From Promethearchaeia archaeon (GTDB taxonomy: Archaea > Asgardarchaeota > Lokiarchaeia > Sigyniarchaeales > SOKP01), in contig JAWOFX010000097.1 of NCBI GenBank assembly GCA_046497275.1, positions 1 to 32,000 on the forward strand: a stretch of DNA of 32,000 nucleotides, in the 5' to 3' direction. Position 1 is the first letter of the stretch; every line of letters starts with the position of its first letter. Positions 5,508 through 26,447 of this stretch are shown here, one piece after another. The position numbers were made by a program, and so were the translations under genes. Below the pieces are notes generated by a model. The model saw only the letters and a list, made by a program, of their open reading frames with translations. It ran no database searches and was not told the DNA's origin.

Positions 5508-6782
5508 ATGAGCCAAGATACTAAGAAAAAAGGTAAGGATCTAAAAAGATATAGGACAAAAAAATTAATAGGACATCTTAGAGATAAAAAAGGATTCCAT
5601 ACAGAACTCATTTCCCTATATATTCCACCAGATAAGAAAGTTTCTGATGTGACTAACTATTTAAAAAATGAGGTTAGTGAAAGTCAGAATATTAAATCTA
5701 AATTAACTAGAAAAAACGTTTTAGATTCAATCTCAACCTTGCTTGGGCAATTGAAAAATTTTAATCAAATTCCAGAAAGTGGGATTATTATGTTTTCTGG
5801 GGCAATACCTCAAAATGATACTCCTGGCACAGAAAAAAATGAGTTATATATTGTAGAACCTCCAGATGTTGTTAATACATTCCGATATCATTGTAATAGT
5901 GAATTTTTATTATGGCCTTTGGAAGACATGCTTCAAGAAAAAGCTACTTATGGATTGATTGTAATAGGGCGTCAAGAGTCCGCTGTGGGATATGTAAAAG
6001 GAAATAGAGTAGAAGTGATTAGAGAGTTTACATCTGGAATCCATAGTAAACATCGAGCAGGGGGTCAATCACAAAGAAGATTCGAAAGATTAATTGAAGA
6101 AGGAGAAAAACGATTTTATAGGAGAATATCTAATGAAATTAATAAAATATTTTTAGATATGGAAGATCTTAGAGGCATATTCATTGGTGGTCCAGGCCCC
6201 TCAAAAGAGAAATTTGTAAATGATGAAAGTCTGGATTATAGATTGCGGGAGAAAATATTGGACGTAGTTGATCTTGGCTATGGTGGCTCAGAAGGAATAC
6301 GCGCATTATTGGAACGTGTTAAAGATAAAATAGAAGATATCAAATACATTCAAGAGAAAAAAATAATGCAAAAATTTATGAGTGAAATCACAAGTGATTC
6401 AGGATTAGCAACCTATGGAATCAAAGAAGTCGAAAAAGGTTTAAATTATGGTGCCGTTGATACTTTAATAATATCAGAGAAATTAGATTTATATAGAGTC
6501 AAATTAAAGTGTTCTAATTGTGATTATATCGAATATCGTATTATCAAAGAAGATGAGTTTGAAGACACCGAGACAATTATTCAAGATGAAGTCTGTCCAA
6601 AATGCAGTTCTAACTCATTTGGATTAGAAGGAAATAAACCTTTAATTGAAGCTTTTGGAGAACTGGCAGAAAGTACAGGCGCAGATATTGAAATTATCTC
6701 AACTGAAACCGAGGAGGGAGAAACTCTTTATAGTACTTTTGGTGGTGTAGTAGCTTTATTGCGATATAAATTCTCTTATTAA
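5508..6782 (+). CDS. prf1: Peptide chain release factor aRF1
   Basis: NIKS motif, YxCxxxF (YHCNSEF), GGQ motif (HRAGGQSQRRF), TELISLYIPP, C-terminal FGGVVALLRY, and a CxxC...CxxC Zn-ribbon insert. Confidence 0.97.
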   Translation: MSQDTKKKGKDLKRYRTKKLIGHLRDKKGFHTELISLYIPPDKKVSDVTNYLKNEVSESQNIKSKLTRKNVLDSISTLLGQLKNFNQIPESGIIMFSGAIPQNDTPGTEKNELYIVEPPDVVNTFRYHCNSEFLLWPLEDMLQEKATYGLIVIGRQESAVGYVKGNRVEVIREFTSGIHSKHRAGGQSQRRFERLIEEGEKRFYRRISNEINKIFLDMEDLRGIFIGGPGPSKEKFVNDESLDYRLREKILDVVDLGYGGSEGIRALLERVKDKIEDIKYIQEKKIMQKFMSEITSDSGLATYGIKEVEKGLNYGAVDTLIISEKLDLYRVKLKCSNCDYIEYRIIKEDEFEDTETIIQDEVCPKCSSNSFGLEGNKPLIEAFGELAESTGADIEIISTETEEGETLYSTFGGVVALLRYKFSY

Positions 6783-6989: not shown

Positions 6990-7973
6990 ATGGAATTAAA
7001 AGATATTCTATTAAATCTGCAAATGGTTATGTTTGGGGGCAAGGGTGGTGTTGGAAAGACAAGTTGTGCCACTAGCTCTGCTATATGGGCAGCAGAGCAT
7101 GGTAAAAGAACCTTAATAATCAGTACAGATCCCGCTCATTCGCTTGGAGATAGTTTGGGATTAGAATTACCCCCGGGAGAGCCCACCCTTGTAAAAGAAG
7201 TAGAAAATTTAACCGCTTTAGAAATTAACCCGAAAGCAAATATGTCAGAGTTCGAAGGAATGACGAATATCAATCCAATAGAAGAAATGGGAATCCCTGG
7301 AATGGGAGAAATGGGGATGTTTGGAGAATTACAAGAGCTTTCCTCGATGAATCCTCCTGGAATTGATGAGGCACTAGCTTTTGCTAAAGTCTTGGAATTT
7401 ATTGAAACAGACCATGATTATGATCTTATAATCTTTGATACAGCTCCAACAGGGCATACTTTGAGATTTTTAGGACTTCCAGAAACTTTATCGGGATGGA
7501 TTGGTAAATTGTTGAAATTGCGATTAAAAATTGGGAATATTTTTGGATCTATAAAAAGTTTTTTCAGCCGAAGTGAAGAAGAAGAGGATGAGGGGAATTC
7601 TCTGGAGTTATTAGAAAAATTGAATGAATCAATAAAAAATGCCCGAGATGACTTAATGAATCCTTCTGTGAATTCATTTATTATTGTTATGATACCAGAG
7701 GAAATGGCAATAGCAGAAACGGGGCGTCTAATTAATCAATTAATAAAATATCAAATTCCCTCCTCTAATATTATTGTAAATCAATTATTTCCAGATACTC
7801 ATGAGTTATGTGATTTTTGTGAAAGTAGAAGAAATATGCAGCAAAAGCATTTAAAAAGAATAAAGGAGATATTTGGAGAGAAAATGAATAAAAATGTCGT
7901 TGAAGTTCCTCTTTTTAAAGAGGAGATCAGAGAATACCAGATGCTAAAAAAAATGGCAGAATTTTTAGTATAA
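6990..7973 (+). CDS. Get3/TRC40-like single-domain ArsA-family ATPase
   Basis: P-loop GGKGGVGKT, STDPAHSL, PPGIDEAL, DTAPTGHTLRFL and C-terminal CDFC (CxxC) followed by RRNMQQKHL. Confidence 0.88.
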   Translation: MELKDILLNLQMVMFGGKGGVGKTSCATSSAIWAAEHGKRTLIISTDPAHSLGDSLGLELPPGEPTLVKEVENLTALEINPKANMSEFEGMTNINPIEEMGIPGMGEMGMFGELQELSSMNPPGIDEALAFAKVLEFIETDHDYDLIIFDTAPTGHTLRFLGLPETLSGWIGKLLKLRLKIGNIFGSIKSFFSRSEEEEDEGNSLELLEKLNESIKNARDDLMNPSVNSFIIVMIPEEMAIAETGRLINQLIKYQIPSSNIIVNQLFPDTHELCDFCESRRNMQQKHLKRIKEIFGEKMNKNVVEVPLFKEEIREYQMLKKMAEFLV

Positions 7974-15623: not shown

Positions 15624-16730
15624 TTAATCAGAACTAATTTCATTTATATTAAATATTTCATCCGATAATCCAACTTTTTCTCTTGAAATAGATTGATCTA
15701 TTTCTAATTCTTCAGGAATAAATTCTTTTCCAAATATCTGCGGGGATTTAATACCCGTTATTAATAACATAACTCTTAAAAATCCCTCAAATTCATCTGA
15801 AACCCTTGCACCCCATATAACCATAGAATCATTAACATCCATAGCTTCAGAAATTTTTGCTGCAACAGAATTAGCTTCAGCTAAAGTCATGTCATTGCCC
15901 CCACATATATGTATAAGTGCTCCTTTTGCTCCAGATATATCTACATCTAAGAGAGGAGATCTCAGAGCATCCTCTATGGCTTCGTTTACTCGATGTTCTT
16001 TAGCATTCGATTCACCTACTCCAACTATAGTAACTCCCCCTGTACCTAAAATAGTTTTTACATCTGCATAATCTAGATTAATAAGAGACGGCATAGAAAT
16101 CGTTTCAGTGATACCTTTTACCATAGTGGCTAAAACTTCATCAGCAACGCTAAAAGCTTCAATAATTGGAAGGTTAGGGGCGATATCTAATAATTTATTA
16201 TTATCAATAACTACTAAAGTGTCAACATATCGTCTTAATTTTTTCAGACCATTTTGGGCATTTTCGATTCTTCCTATTTCTGATTTAAATGGCATAGTAA
16301 CAACCCCAACAACGATAGCGTCTTCATTTTTTGCTATCTCAGCTATAATAGGTGCACTCCCTGTGCCTGTTCCCCCTCCCTCTCCACAAGTTATAAATAC
16401 TAAATCAGATTCTCTTAGAACTTTTATTAAATCCTCCCGATCCTCCTCGGCGGCAGCTTTCCCAATCTCAGGATTCCCTCCTGCCCCTAAACCTCTTGTT
16501 AAGTTTTTACCTATTAGAATTTTAATGTGAGACTCAATCATATCTAAATGTTGATGATCAGTATTAACAGCAACGCATTTTGCTCCTTTAATCCCTATTT
16601 TCATTAATCTATCAATTGTATTATTACCAGCTCCTCCAGCACCTACAATTTTTATATTTGCATAACCAATATTTTGGCGATCAGGTCGATTTATTGCTCT
16701 TTTTTTAGCATTTTTAATAAATGATTCCAC
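15624..16730 (-). CDS. ftsZ: Cell division GTPase FtsZ
   Basis: GAGGAGNNTIDRL, VNTD, TRGLGAGGNPEIG, tubulin signature GEGGGTGTG and T7 loop SLINLDYADV. GTG start. Confidence 0.97.
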   Translation of the reverse strand: MESFIKNAKKRAINRPDRQNIGYANIKIVGAGGAGNNTIDRLMKIGIKGAKCVAVNTDHQHLDMIESHIKILIGKNLTRGLGAGGNPEIGKAAAEEDREDLIKVLRESDLVFITCGEGGGTGTGSAPIIAEIAKNEDAIVVGVVTMPFKSEIGRIENAQNGLKKLRRYVDTLVVIDNNKLLDIAPNLPIIEAFSVADEVLATMVKGITETISMPSLINLDYADVKTILGTGGVTIVGVGESNAKEHRVNEAIEDALRSPLLDVDISGAKGALIHICGGNDMTLAEANSVAAKISEAMDVNDSMVIWGARVSDEFEGFLRVMLLITGIKSPQIFGKEFIPEELEIDQSISREKVGLSDEIFNINEISSD

Positions 16731-22748: not shown

Positions 22749-23675
22749 CTATATTGGTTTAATTAAGTTATCATAACTCAGTGAATTGATTAATTCTTTA
22801 TACCTATTCCGAATTGTTGTCTCAGTAACACCAGAGACATATGAGATTTCTTTTTGGGTCCTTCTTTCTCCTTGTTCTAGTGCCGCCAAATAGAGAGCGG
22901 CTCCCGCCAACCCTGTGGGGGCTTTTCCAGCAGTCAATCGATGTTTTTTTGCTAATTTGATTAATTCGGCCGCTCTATTTTGAGTTTTTCCTGAGAGGTT
23001 TAATTCTGCACTAAATCTAGGTATAAAATTAATCGGAGAGGAGACACAAATATTAATTTTGAGTTCTTTTATAATCAAACGATAACATCTCGCAATTTGT
23101 TTTTTATCAACAGAGGTGTATTCAATAAAATCATCGAGAGTTTTGGGAATTTGATTGAGTCTGCATGTTAAATAGATAGAAGCAATAAGCATAGCTTCAA
23201 TAGATCTACCTCTTATTAATCCTTTATTTGCCATTTTCCTATAAATATGAGCTGCCCTTTCTTTAAGATCTCTGGAAATATTAAGTTGAGAAGATAAGCG
23301 ATCCAACTGATTCATGGCATAAGATAAATTTCTGTCAATAGATTTATTTGTTCTTGTTCTTGTGTTCCATTTTCTTAATCTATAGATTTCTGCTTTTCTC
23401 TTCGGTGAAAGTTTTTGTCCAAATGCGTCTTTGTTCTTCCATCCTATGATTGTACTTAACCCTTTATCGTGTAAAGTTAAAGTTGTTGGAGCCCCCACAC
23501 GAACTTTTTTTTTCGCTTCTTCTGTCGAGAATGCACGCCATTCAGGGCCACAATCAATTAATTTTTGGTTTATAACTAATCCGCAATCATTACAAATTAT
23601 TTCAGCTCTTGAATCATCAATTATTAAATTGCAATTACCACATTCTGGACAAAGATTAAAATTTTCTTGAGGCAT
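22749..23675 (-). CDS. tfb: Transcription initiation factor IIB
   Basis: Zn ribbon CPECG...CNDCG, B-reader IDCGPEWRAF, LHDKGLST, LRKW, GLIRGRSIE, and GKAPTGLAGAALY...RRTQKE...VTETTIRNRYKE. Confidence 0.97.
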   Translation of the reverse strand: MPQENFNLCPECGNCNLIIDDSRAEIICNDCGLVINQKLIDCGPEWRAFSTEEAKKKVRVGAPTTLTLHDKGLSTIIGWKNKDAFGQKLSPKRKAEIYRLRKWNTRTRTNKSIDRNLSYAMNQLDRLSSQLNISRDLKERAAHIYRKMANKGLIRGRSIEAMLIASIYLTCRLNQIPKTLDDFIEYTSVDKKQIARCYRLIIKELKINICVSSPINFIPRFSAELNLSGKTQNRAAELIKLAKKHRLTAGKAPTGLAGAALYLAALEQGERRTQKEISYVSGVTETTIRNRYKELINSLSYDNLIKPI

Positions 23676-24026: not shown

Positions 24027-24464
24027 ATGATGCGCCGATTTTCAAAAAGTCATGGACCACATTGTTATCTTCGTTCCTTTAAGACAGAATGTCCAAAATG
24101 TGGAGCAGAAATTCTATATTGGGAATGTACACACGGTTGTAAAGTATTTTTTGAATATCCACCATATGGAAAATTAATAAAACATAAATGTAAAAATATT
24201 AAAGACAGATCCACTAAAAATAAATATAAAGTTATAGTTAAACGACCAAAGGGTTTACTAGAAAATACTTCGAAATATTGTCCAGCATGTGGAAAAGTAT
24301 TCGATAATCAAAAAAGGCTCAATGATCATATTAAACAGATGCAAAAATTCGATTATTTTCACCAGATAATAGGAGTGAAAAATAATGAAAATAATTCTAT
24401 GAGCTCGGATAAGGATAAAAAAGAATATGATCCTCCAAAATTTGGACAAATAAACTTAATATAA
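24027..24464 (+). CDS. Uncharacterised multi-Cys/His zinc-binding protein
   Basis: H-x-x-HC...CPKCG...C-x-HGC...KHKC, followed by a C2H2-like CPACGKVF-x-x-x-x-x-L-x-x-H. Confidence 0.65.
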   Translation: MMRRFSKSHGPHCYLRSFKTECPKCGAEILYWECTHGCKVFFEYPPYGKLIKHKCKNIKDRSTKNKYKVIVKRPKGLLENTSKYCPACGKVFDNQKRLNDHIKQMQKFDYFHQIIGVKNNENNSMSSDKDKKEYDPPKFGQINLI

Positions 24465-24604
24465 GGTTGTAAATACATATTTAATTCGAAATTTTAAAAA
24501 ATGTTTTATCAATATTCTAAAATATTAAGTCATAGAAAATTTTAATAATATTAATTTAGATATATCAATTAAACAAATAACTAGTTTAGGATAAAAATAT
24601 AATT

Positions 24605-25219
24605 ATGCCAGTTGCACCTCAAGAGGCTGTTTCTCATTTAATGCAGAAAGACCCATCTATTATTGCAGCAGTAGTGGTTGAAGGAAAGGGCAATTTAATA
24701 TTTCAAACTGATAATTGGGATGTGACTCCAGATTTAGACCGTGTATTATCCAGTTGGAGAGGTCAAAATGCTCAATTCATCAAAATATCTGGAGTAAAAT
24801 ATTCTATGCTACAATGTACAGGCGAAAGAATGGCAGCAACCTCTATTAAAGGTGAAGGGAGCATAGTTGCTGCAAAAGATGAGGAGCATGCTTTAATAGC
24901 ATATGTCTCTCCTGAGGGAGATATGAGAGGAGCTATGATGGATACTGCTCGTGCTGTAGGAGATATGAGTTCTAGTAAACCCTATATGGAAGAAGAGGGC
25001 CAGCTTGGAAAAGAAATGGAGGGGACAGCACAAGCTCAAAGCGCCTCGAGTAATATTGATCCTGAATTAAAAGCAGAGATTGAATCCTTTTTACAATGGG
25101 TAAAAGATGACGAAGGTTTAGCAGGTTATATAAGATATTATTTACAACAAAATAACATACAGATAATTTCTCAATTATCGCAAGTTTATTCTGAGTTACG
25201 GCAATTATTTGGTGTTTAA
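24605..25219 (+). CDS. Asgard-type profilin domain (about aa 1-122) fused by a linker to an extra C-terminal helical domain (about aa 150-204)
   Basis: GNLIFQTDNWDV, ISGVKYSMLQCTGERMAATSIKGEGSIV and ALIAYVSP resemble, from memory, Loki profilin segments of the type GELITQTENWNI, IQGIKYMI...ER...T-x-I-x-G-x-G and ALITYVNP. Confidence 0.72.
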   Translation: MPVAPQEAVSHLMQKDPSIIAAVVVEGKGNLIFQTDNWDVTPDLDRVLSSWRGQNAQFIKISGVKYSMLQCTGERMAATSIKGEGSIVAAKDEEHALIAYVSPEGDMRGAMMDTARAVGDMSSSKPYMEEEGQLGKEMEGTAQAQSASSNIDPELKAEIESFLQWVKDDEGLAGYIRYYLQQNNIQIISQLSQVYSELRQLFGV

Positions 25220-25364
25220 ACTTTAGAATAAAAATAATTATAATTTAATCCATTGAGATTTTAAATATATTATCTAATTAATTATTCTTTGATTTATTGT
25301 CTTAAACAGAGAAAATTATTTTTGTATCAATAAGTTTAAAATTATTATTAGATTATCGGATGCA

Positions 25365-26447
25365 ATGACTGTAAATGTCGGAGTTGTTGGTGCTAGTGGG
25401 TTTGCTGGAGGAGAAACTGTTAGAATATTATCCAATCATCCAAATGTTAACTTAAATTATATAACATCGAGAAGATTGATTGGTAAATATTTTCATTCTG
25501 TTTATCCGAATTTAAGAAATATTGTTAATTATAAATTTGAAAAATTTAATATTAAAATAGCACAAGAGAAATGTGATATAATTTTCCTCGCCACACCCCA
25601 TGGAATTTCTCAAGATTTAGTACCTTCATTATTAGAAGTTGGCCTGAAAGTTATTGATTTAAGTGCGGATTTTCGTTTAAAAAATCTTGATATTTATAAG
25701 AAATATTATAAAAAAAATCATTCTCATCCTGAACTATTTCAAAAAGCAGTTTATGGATTACCAGAACTACATCGTGATGAAATAAAAGATGCTAATTTAA
25801 TTGCTGTTGCGGGATGTCATGCATCTAGTGCTATTTATGGTTTATATCCATTAGTTCAAGAAAATTTAATCGATACATCCAAAATTATTGTTGATTCAAA
25901 AACAGGATCGTCTGGATCTGGAAAAGGTGTAAATGAATCAACTCATCATTCAATAAGAGCAAACAGCATACGTCCTTATAAAATGACAGGCCATCGACAC
26001 ACCGCCGAAATAGAACAAGAATTGGAAAGAATATTGAAGGATAAAAATATTGAACAAGAAAAAGTAAAGATAGGGTTTTCTGCTCATGCAGTGAATTTAG
26101 TTAGAGGAATTTTATCAACATGTCATGCTTTTTTTCCTAATAATATTGAAATTAATGAAAAAATGCTATTTAGAACTTATCGCAAAGCATTTAGAGAGGA
26201 ACCTTTTTTACGTTTGATTAATCAAAATACGGGTATCTTTAGATTACCAGATCCTAAAGTAATAGTGGGTACAAATTATTGTGACGTGGGATTTCAATTA
26301 GATGATCATTTAAATCGAATAGTAATTTTATGTACACTCGATAACATCGTTAAAGGCACAGCAGGTAATGCTATTCAGTCAATGAATATTATGCTAAAAA
26401 TTTCAGAAAAGGCTGGATTAGATTTTCCAGGTTATTTTCCTTCTTAA
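25365..26447 (+). CDS. lysY: N-acetyl-gamma-glutamyl-phosphate reductase family, LysW-dependent LysY/ArgC type
   Basis: GASGFAGGE, FLATPHG, IDLSADFRL, AVYGLPELHR, catalytic AGC, and GHRHTAEI (LysY-like rather than HRHxPEI), plus DNIVKGTAGNAIQSMN. Confidence 0.85.
   Translation: MTVNVGVVGASGFAGGETVRILSNHPNVNLNYITSRRLIGKYFHSVYPNLRNIVNYKFEKFNIKIAQEKCDIIFLATPHGISQDLVPSLLEVGLKVIDLSADFRLKNLDIYKKYYKKNHSHPELFQKAVYGLPELHRDEIKDANLIAVAGCHASSAIYGLYPLVQENLIDTSKIIVDSKTGSSGSGKGVNESTHHSIRANSIRPYKMTGHRHTAEIEQELERILKDKNIEQEKVKIGFSAHAVNLVRGILSTCHAFFPNNIEINEKMLFRTYRKAFREEPFLRLINQNTGIFRLPDPKVIVGTNYCDVGFQLDDHLNRIVILCTLDNIVKGTAGNAIQSMNIMLKISEKAGLDFPGYFPS

Follow-up and report, generated by a model that had tools for sequence, protein, structure and literature searches.

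The gene at positions 24605-25219 of the window (the whole 32,000-nt stretch of Promethearchaeia DNA analysed here) encodes a protein of 204 aa, in which a profilin domain is joined through a conserved short motif and a flexible linker to a three-helix domain predicted to pair with a second copy of itself in an intertwined homodimer. In the reading that we consider best, this pairing module sets the valency or the location of a two-headed profilin whose binding to actin is proposed from its fold and conserved motif. We put the probability that the protein is a two-headed profilin that regulates actin, with its tails paired, at slightly more than one half (~0.52). The features of the locus are as follows.

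24605-25219, plus strand: gene for a 204-aa protein, profilin plus a (predicted) three-helix dimer domain, identified from the ORF translation, homologues, and contigs
24605-24967, plus strand: profilin domain (aa 1-121), with the invariant residues concentrated in the three-strand motif (58-87) and the C-terminal helix
24968-25009, plus strand: conserved post-profilin motif (aa 122-135; Y127, Q133-L134-G135), modelled without confidence
25010-25051, plus strand: variable flexible linker (aa 136-149)
25052-25216, plus strand: three-helix domain (aa 150-204) of the predicted intertwined homodimer; W165 is invariant
24027-24464, plus strand: zinc-finger gene directly upstream of the profilin fusion, kept as a neighbour in 39 of 42 loci
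22749-23675, minus strand: divergent TFIIB gene, kept as a neighbour in 40 of 42 loci and marking positional orthology

The fusion of profilin and tail is real, and the 204-aa ORF stands as the sequence-only reading had described it. The genome carrying the window is 3.85 Mb in size, and homologues of the fusion are labelled Lokiarchaeota or Promethearchaeota; at least 120 full-length homologues were found, the best 120 of which are all 198-212 aa long and aligned over 98-100% of their length. The entire ORF is spanned without gaps by an independent contig from a DNA run (positions 24534-25244) and by a contig from an RNA-library run (24368-25401), the RNA-library contigs being a record of coverage of the gene from which the level of transcription is not readable. 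An artefactual fusion, or a tail that is unconserved read-through, is virtually impossible, being refuted by the homologues, the conservation, the distribution among genomes, and the spanning contigs, as well as by the detection of a 22.82-kDa orthologue by mass spectrometry. The neighbourhood with the zinc-finger and TFIIB genes is also present in the closed genomes of Ca. Lokiarchaeum ossiferum and Promethearchaeum syntrophicum MK-D1. The upstream gene encodes an uncharacterised protein with two zinc fingers that is tightly linked to the fusion across the order, i.e. a candidate partner or regulator; the gap between the two genes is 3 nt in MK-D1 and 39 nt in L. ossiferum. A promoter scan at the fusion gene gave a result at chance level.

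Residues 1-121 are a profilin, as had been proposed for aa 1-122. In a phmmer search against PDB sequences, the only significant matches were Asgard profilins (E 4e-12 to 5e-8), namely Odin 5zza (4e-12), Thor 7pbh (2e-10), and Loki 5yed and 5zzb (~1e-8 each), and the head is thus homologous in sequence to four solved and functionally characterised Asgard profilins. The Pfam family PF00235 (Profilin) scores 22 bits (E 1.8e-4) on the protein, with a gathering cut-off of 25, and reaches 25.3 bits on the homologue P0158. In the AlphaFold model, the head has a pLDDT of 84-95, and its best Foldseek match is Odin profilin 5zza (E 9.6e-11, TM by target 0.86, rmsd 1.6). A Roadblock- or longin-type fold, which the sequence-only reading had named as the outcome that would overturn its assignment, was rejected: ranks 1-48 of the Foldseek matches are profilins, and Roadblock3 appears first at rank 49-50 (E 6e-4, TM 0.60, rmsd 4.5-5.2). 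Moreover, the central helix, which is uninterrupted and used for dimerisation in Roadblock and longin domains, is interrupted in the model by a three-strand insert (strands 58-61, 64-71, and 75-80). This insert distinguishes profilin from Roadblock and, in Asgard profilins, forms contacts with actin (PMC10933270). It also contains most of the family-invariant residues (F58, G63, K65, Y66, S67, L69, Q70, R75, G83, and G85), and 14 of the 30 residues at 59-88 are identical to those of Odin profilin in the phmmer alignment. K65 is aligned with an Odin lysine proposed to bind PIP2 (PMC8410842) and may be its counterpart.

The region between the two domains had been described as a polar, low-complexity linker. 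This holds for about residues 136-149, to which free variation is limited, and fails for the preceding segment, where a conserved motif had been overlooked: among 121 homologues, Y127 is conserved in 99%, and Q133, L134, and G135 (100%) are also conserved. The Tyr..Gln-Leu-Gly motif was found in 135 of 152 fused proteins, in which the spacing between head and tail has a median of 25 aa (range, 10-144). AlphaFold models residues 125-150 as disordered (pLDDT <50). Y127 may be the counterpart of the terminal aromatic residue of eukaryotic profilins, a correspondence extrapolated from the Pfam alignment, in which residue 116 falls on position 116 of the 127 of the profile.

The extra C-terminal helical domain is folded and conserved, and the suspicion that it might be an unconserved or disordered extension can be set aside. 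Modelled alone, it forms three helices with a pLDDT of 94.5 (helices at 153-167, 172-181, and 185-202 in the model of the protein), and its mean column entropy among 121 homologues is 0.64, as compared with 0.76 for the profilin part and 2.1 for the linker, i.e. the tail is slightly more conserved than the profilin. W165 is invariant; F162, G171, L172, and Y195 are nearly so; and Y178, N/D184, and the Phe-Gly-hydrophobic end are also conserved. The domain is acidic, with a net charge of -3 to -4. Pfam gave scattered weak matches to the tail and no family, the PDB sequence search returned nothing under E 0.04, Foldseek found no match, VIA-align with the tail monomer gave a best Z of 5.4 among generic helical matches, none of them clear, and neither NCBIfam nor ESM Atlas annotates a feature in it. 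The ESM Atlas shape search yielded unnamed Promethearchaeota proteins only (TM 0.87-0.95). The tail is apparently an undescribed domain family; such blank searches are no proof of a new fold, and villin headpiece, which was not listed, is not excluded by them. Matches to HNF-1_N (E 0.087) and to an anti-CRISPR protein (E 0.81) were taken as chance. A resemblance to the RIIa/Dpy-30 domains was not supported: PF02197 and PF05186 gave no match at the three copies of this genome at E up to 10; both are also absent among the families listed for members of the tail alignment.

One of the roles suggested for the tail, dimerisation of the protein, finds support in a complex prediction run with controls. 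For a pair of aa 150-204 chains, the complex score was 0.84 in three runs, against 0.00 for the best of three controls, with our own alignment as input. Of 30 proteins with structures solved as pairs, 20 reached this score mark, as did 1 of the 23 with single-chain structures, and up to 19 in 100 monomers may pass it. The three runs agree in at least 97% of contacts, with a pLDDT of at least 92. In the predicted intertwined interface, helix 1 of one chain packs against helices 2 and 3 of the other (I176-L163, Y195-F162, L172-V166, and Y195-W165); Y178 and residue 184 are absent from the contacts listed. Contact positions that were predicted best are also better conserved (entropy 1.29 vs 2.23), and most contact positions stay hydrophobic in fused and stand-alone forms alike, a pattern that would also be expected of conserved positions in the core of a monomer. 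Recall of a solved structure by the predictor is less likely because neither the sequence search nor the fold search yielded a similar complex.

The tail is a mobile module that also has a stand-alone form, which was not seen in the sequence-only reading. The domain is present in 153 of the 154 searched genomes of this Lokiarchaeia order; it was absent from all seven genomes that belong to different orders of the class and from the remaining Asgard genomes of a 301-genome sample. Since it was not found outside the order, it would represent an elaboration of the Asgard cytoskeleton specific to this lineage and is probably not the ancestor of a eukaryotic component. As for whether the C-terminal domain occurs on other proteins too, a check proposed in the sequence-only reading, it was found on Rab-like GTPases, on an LRR protein, and as the product of a stand-alone gene. 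In 1.8 billion proteins, a profile search produced 62 matches, comprising profilin fusions, stand-alone forms, fragments, GTPases, the LRR protein, and one false match (P0192, with FG-GAP repeats). A search for long fusions was empty, but is uninformative because it missed the known carriers of 388-474 aa. The principal copies outside the window are as follows.

C110:39232-39927 (L002:3233-3928): second profilin-tail paralogue, with a longer, lysine-rich linker
C169:17428-17589: stand-alone 53-aa tail gene of this genome, with an in-frame stop just upstream
L001:3429-3590, L059:4826-4978, and L061:4596-4757, minus strand: stand-alone tail genes of 50-53 aa
L048:1981-3039, L049:2114-3538, L073:730-2019, L074:296-1462, and L075:316-1335: mosaic Rab-like GTPase genes

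The stand-alone genes (50-56 aa) form one clade across families (99/94 support) and have their own conserved neighbours in most loci, i.e. a gene for a Hel308-like helicase and a DnaJ-like zinc-finger gene. The stand-alone gene is ancient, and the GTPase-borne tail is sporadic. Several Rab-like GTPases with proline-rich linkers carry the tail, one of them also with a gelsolin-like stretch (E 4e-4), and one GTPase-tail gene was found repeatedly, in eight cluster members. These tails appear to be recent captures because they are 84-92% identical to profilin-borne copies in relatives. The mosaic genes combine the GTPase, the proline-rich linker, pieces of the profilin gene, and the tail, some with an added zinc finger or gelsolin-like stretch, and look like recent domain shuffling among actin-related genes. 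Some relatives of the second paralogue have linkers of up to 144 aa. A 478-aa ORF upstream of that paralogue (L002:1782-3218) has a weak match to the tail profile at residues 221-255 (E 0.004), probably by chance. The carriers P0179 and P0190 comprise a 435-aa LRR protein with the tail at its end and a protein with ~100 extra N-terminal residues before the profilin; these residues are ribbon-helix-helix-like by resemblance only, with no Pfam match.

This genome also encodes a separate, canonical Loki-type profilin. In addition, a 410-aa protein (L003:2491-3723; C84:45490-46722) combines a profilin-like domain with a TrmB-type winged-helix domain (E 2e-11); its gene lies directly downstream of an actin-like gene, and a Tyr..Phe-Gly motif follows the profilin. 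A fifth, divergent profilin-like ORF of 124 aa (L004:3480-3854; C156:5479-5853) is similar to L. ossiferum Pro2.

Both cultured organisms contain a positional orthologue of the fusion with the same architecture, QEE14768 in MK-D1 and UYP46361 in L. ossiferum, and a stand-alone tail gene (QEE17473 and UYP44705, respectively). UYP46361 is the protein B35_Pro1 of bioRxiv 10.1101/2025.11.30.690169, and the mass listed for it (22.82 kDa) is the same as that of the fusion of 207 aa. According to the available passages of that preprint and of PMC13716822, B35_Pro1 is named a profilin and was detected by proteomics; those same passages make no mention of its tail, and databases label it hypothetical. 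The window protein and Pro1 are 34% identical over their full length, with 28 of 52 residues (54%) identical in the tail and 35 of 119 (29%) in the head. The three-strand motif has diverged in both the L. ossiferum and the MK-D1 orthologues, and Pro1 has lost Glu-Arg and Gly-x-Gly residues, which are retained in the window protein. In the proteome data of L. ossiferum, the mean values are 19.51 for B35_Pro1, 17.38 for the single-domain B35_Pro2, and 21.69 for actin, a comparison that leaves out the third L. ossiferum profilin and does not rank Pro1 as the top one. In the Lokiactin co-immunoprecipitation (co-IP) data (bioRxiv 10.1101/2025.11.30.690169, Table S2), B35_Pro1 was not significantly enriched (log2 ratio 0.31, P 0.17), and B35_Pro2 was enriched only 2-fold (log2 ratio 1.07, P 0.0018). 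Of the two-domain actin regulator that had been proposed, the two folded domains are borne out, and the regulation of actin is left unsupported by the Pro1 co-IP, a result that transfers only partly to the window protein because Pro1 has lost the Glu-Arg and Gly-x-Gly residues.

UYP44705 is most likely GNAMCCOK_00999 because its neighbour UYP44706 (computed mass, 39.86 kDa) matches GNAMCCOK_01000 (39.83 kDa). Under this inferred identifier, the proteome data give a mean of 22.36 and rank 38 of 3061, with actin at rank 59. The stand-alone tail protein thus appears to be very abundant in L. ossiferum, above actin, the estimate being uncertain for a protein of 5.7 kDa. A ~7-fold excess over Pro1, if correct, would probably mean that the module does more than pair profilins.

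In the preferred, two-headed reading, two chains would interlock through their C-terminal three-helix domains into a six-helix dimer bearing two profilin heads on tethers of ~25 residues, with the linker evident from sequence and its flexibility predicted. Each head would bind Lokiactin at its barbed face in the manner of Odin and Loki profilins, as suggested by the fold and the conserved motif, and the avidity of two heads might allow action on paired actin subunits, for instance at filament barbed ends or in nuclei, beyond the buffering of monomers. Mixed dimers, made plausible by the hydrophobic character that most interface positions retain in the stand-alone clade, could reduce the valency or move a head elsewhere because the module also exists alone and on a second profilin paralogue. 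A possible though doubtful alternative, which is not exclusive of the two-headed reading, is that the dimeric domain mainly serves as a docking or targeting platform with a ligand of its own (a protein or a membrane); the abundant stand-alone dimer would then be the main species, and fusion would bring a profilin or a GTPase to its site, by analogy with the docking domain of PKA but outside that family. The single well-supported clade of stand-alone genes with their own conserved neighbours, the apparent rank of the L. ossiferum protein above actin (identifier inferred), the conservation of Y178, N/D184, and the terminal Phe-Gly-hydrophobic end, with Y178 and 184 outside the listed interface, and the presence of the module on Rab-like GTPases and the LRR protein are all in line with such a platform. 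However, the acidity of the domain does not favour binding to DNA or anionic lipids, and the GTPase copies, sporadic and recent, may be neutral mosaics.

It is unlikely that the head keeps the profilin fold but no longer regulates actin, having been repurposed as an interaction or sensor module like Roadblock and longin, which share the core fold. The Pro1 co-IP and the motif divergence in the two cultured orthologues point that way, as do the joining of profilin heads to a TrmB-type DNA-binding domain in this genome and the stable linkage of the fusion to TFIIB and zinc-finger genes and not to actin genes; in the window protein, however, the Odin/Loki-type motif is under strong constraint. 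Profilin-actin affinities are typically weak, so that binding is lost in co-IP, and even Pro2 was enriched only 2-fold. Very improbable is a fold-back of the extension in cis that masks the polyproline or lipid face of the profilin (autoinhibition), although Heimdall and Thor profilins bind polyproline and PIP2 better once their N-terminal extension is deleted (PMC8410842) and the Y127..QLG motif directly follows the C-terminal helix, where it could dock. The AlphaFold pTM of 0.59 and the disordered linker are consistent with independent domains. As for covering of the polyproline face, a further role suggested earlier for the appended domain, it is unlikely for the helical domain because the predicted dimer takes up its hydrophobic residues and the domain also lives without profilin; masking may apply to the short motif and hardly to the helical domain. 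In a bolder and rather improbable extension of the two-headed reading, the tail would be a homotypic pairing tag that wires the actin system of Lokiarchaeia without formins or polyproline: the homodimeric profilin would track or nucleate filament ends, the 5.7-kDa stand-alone microprotein would convert it into a one-headed monomer buffer, and GTPases that captured the tag would couple signalling to profilin.

Asgard profilins are already known, and this orthologue has been counted among them. Odin (5zza), Loki profilin 1 and 2 (5yed, 5yee, and 5zzb), and Thor (7pbh) profilins resemble the head (TM by target 0.69-0.86), with 23-32% identity and conserved motifs in common; the head of B35_Pro1 is further from Odin profilin than that of the window protein. 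These profilins have a single domain of 121-145 aa, whereas the window protein adds the motif, the linker, and a 55-aa predicted dimer domain. Because of its 204 aa with a second folded domain, as against ~120-145 aa in single-domain forms, it is a profilin variant and not a plain member. Heimdall and Thor profilins likewise have an appended segment that possibly tunes the profilin, but their extensions are N-terminal, disordered, at most 25 aa long, and sporadic (~5%), whereas the type described here is a folded C-terminal domain found order-wide (PMC8410842). The Asgard 1DGelX and extended 2DGel gelsolins also combine an actin-binding core with a C-terminal domain proposed to extend activity; their core is gelsolin rather than profilin, and their tails are described as coiled-coil or zinc-binding, which sets them apart (PMC7444086, PMC9433394). 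As small helical homodimer modules on diverse proteins, the PKA RIIa/Dpy-30 dimerisation-docking domains offer a functional analogy only: they have two helices and an X-type four-helix dimer with a docking groove, whereas the tail has three helices, the third of which takes part in the predicted interface. What we take to be a loose motif resemblance links the tail to these domains.

In the searchable literature, which does not reach some relevant texts, we found no account of the tail domain, of its dimerisation, or of the stand-alone form; in the same literature, the accessions of the fusion and stand-alone proteins are uncited and the architecture is undescribed. Cultured Lokiarchaeia use Lokiactin for crawling (PMC13716822), and in Asgard archaea machinery for recruiting profilin-actin to nucleation has yet to be found (PMC9433394). 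Constitutive dimerisation of a profilin, if true, would be a concrete candidate route from a simple monomer binder to a filament-end or nucleating activity. As the fusion and the stand-alone gene are present in each of the two cultured model organisms, direct tests are feasible with small recombinant proteins.

Elsewhere in the window, the ORFs at positions 1-2000 look spurious, and the sequence there looks like ribosomal RNA seen from the other strand. The genes at 5508-6782, 6990-7973, and 15624-16730, which by eye we take to encode release factor aRF1, an ArsA/GET3-like ATPase, and FtsZ, respectively, form an ordinary housekeeping context.
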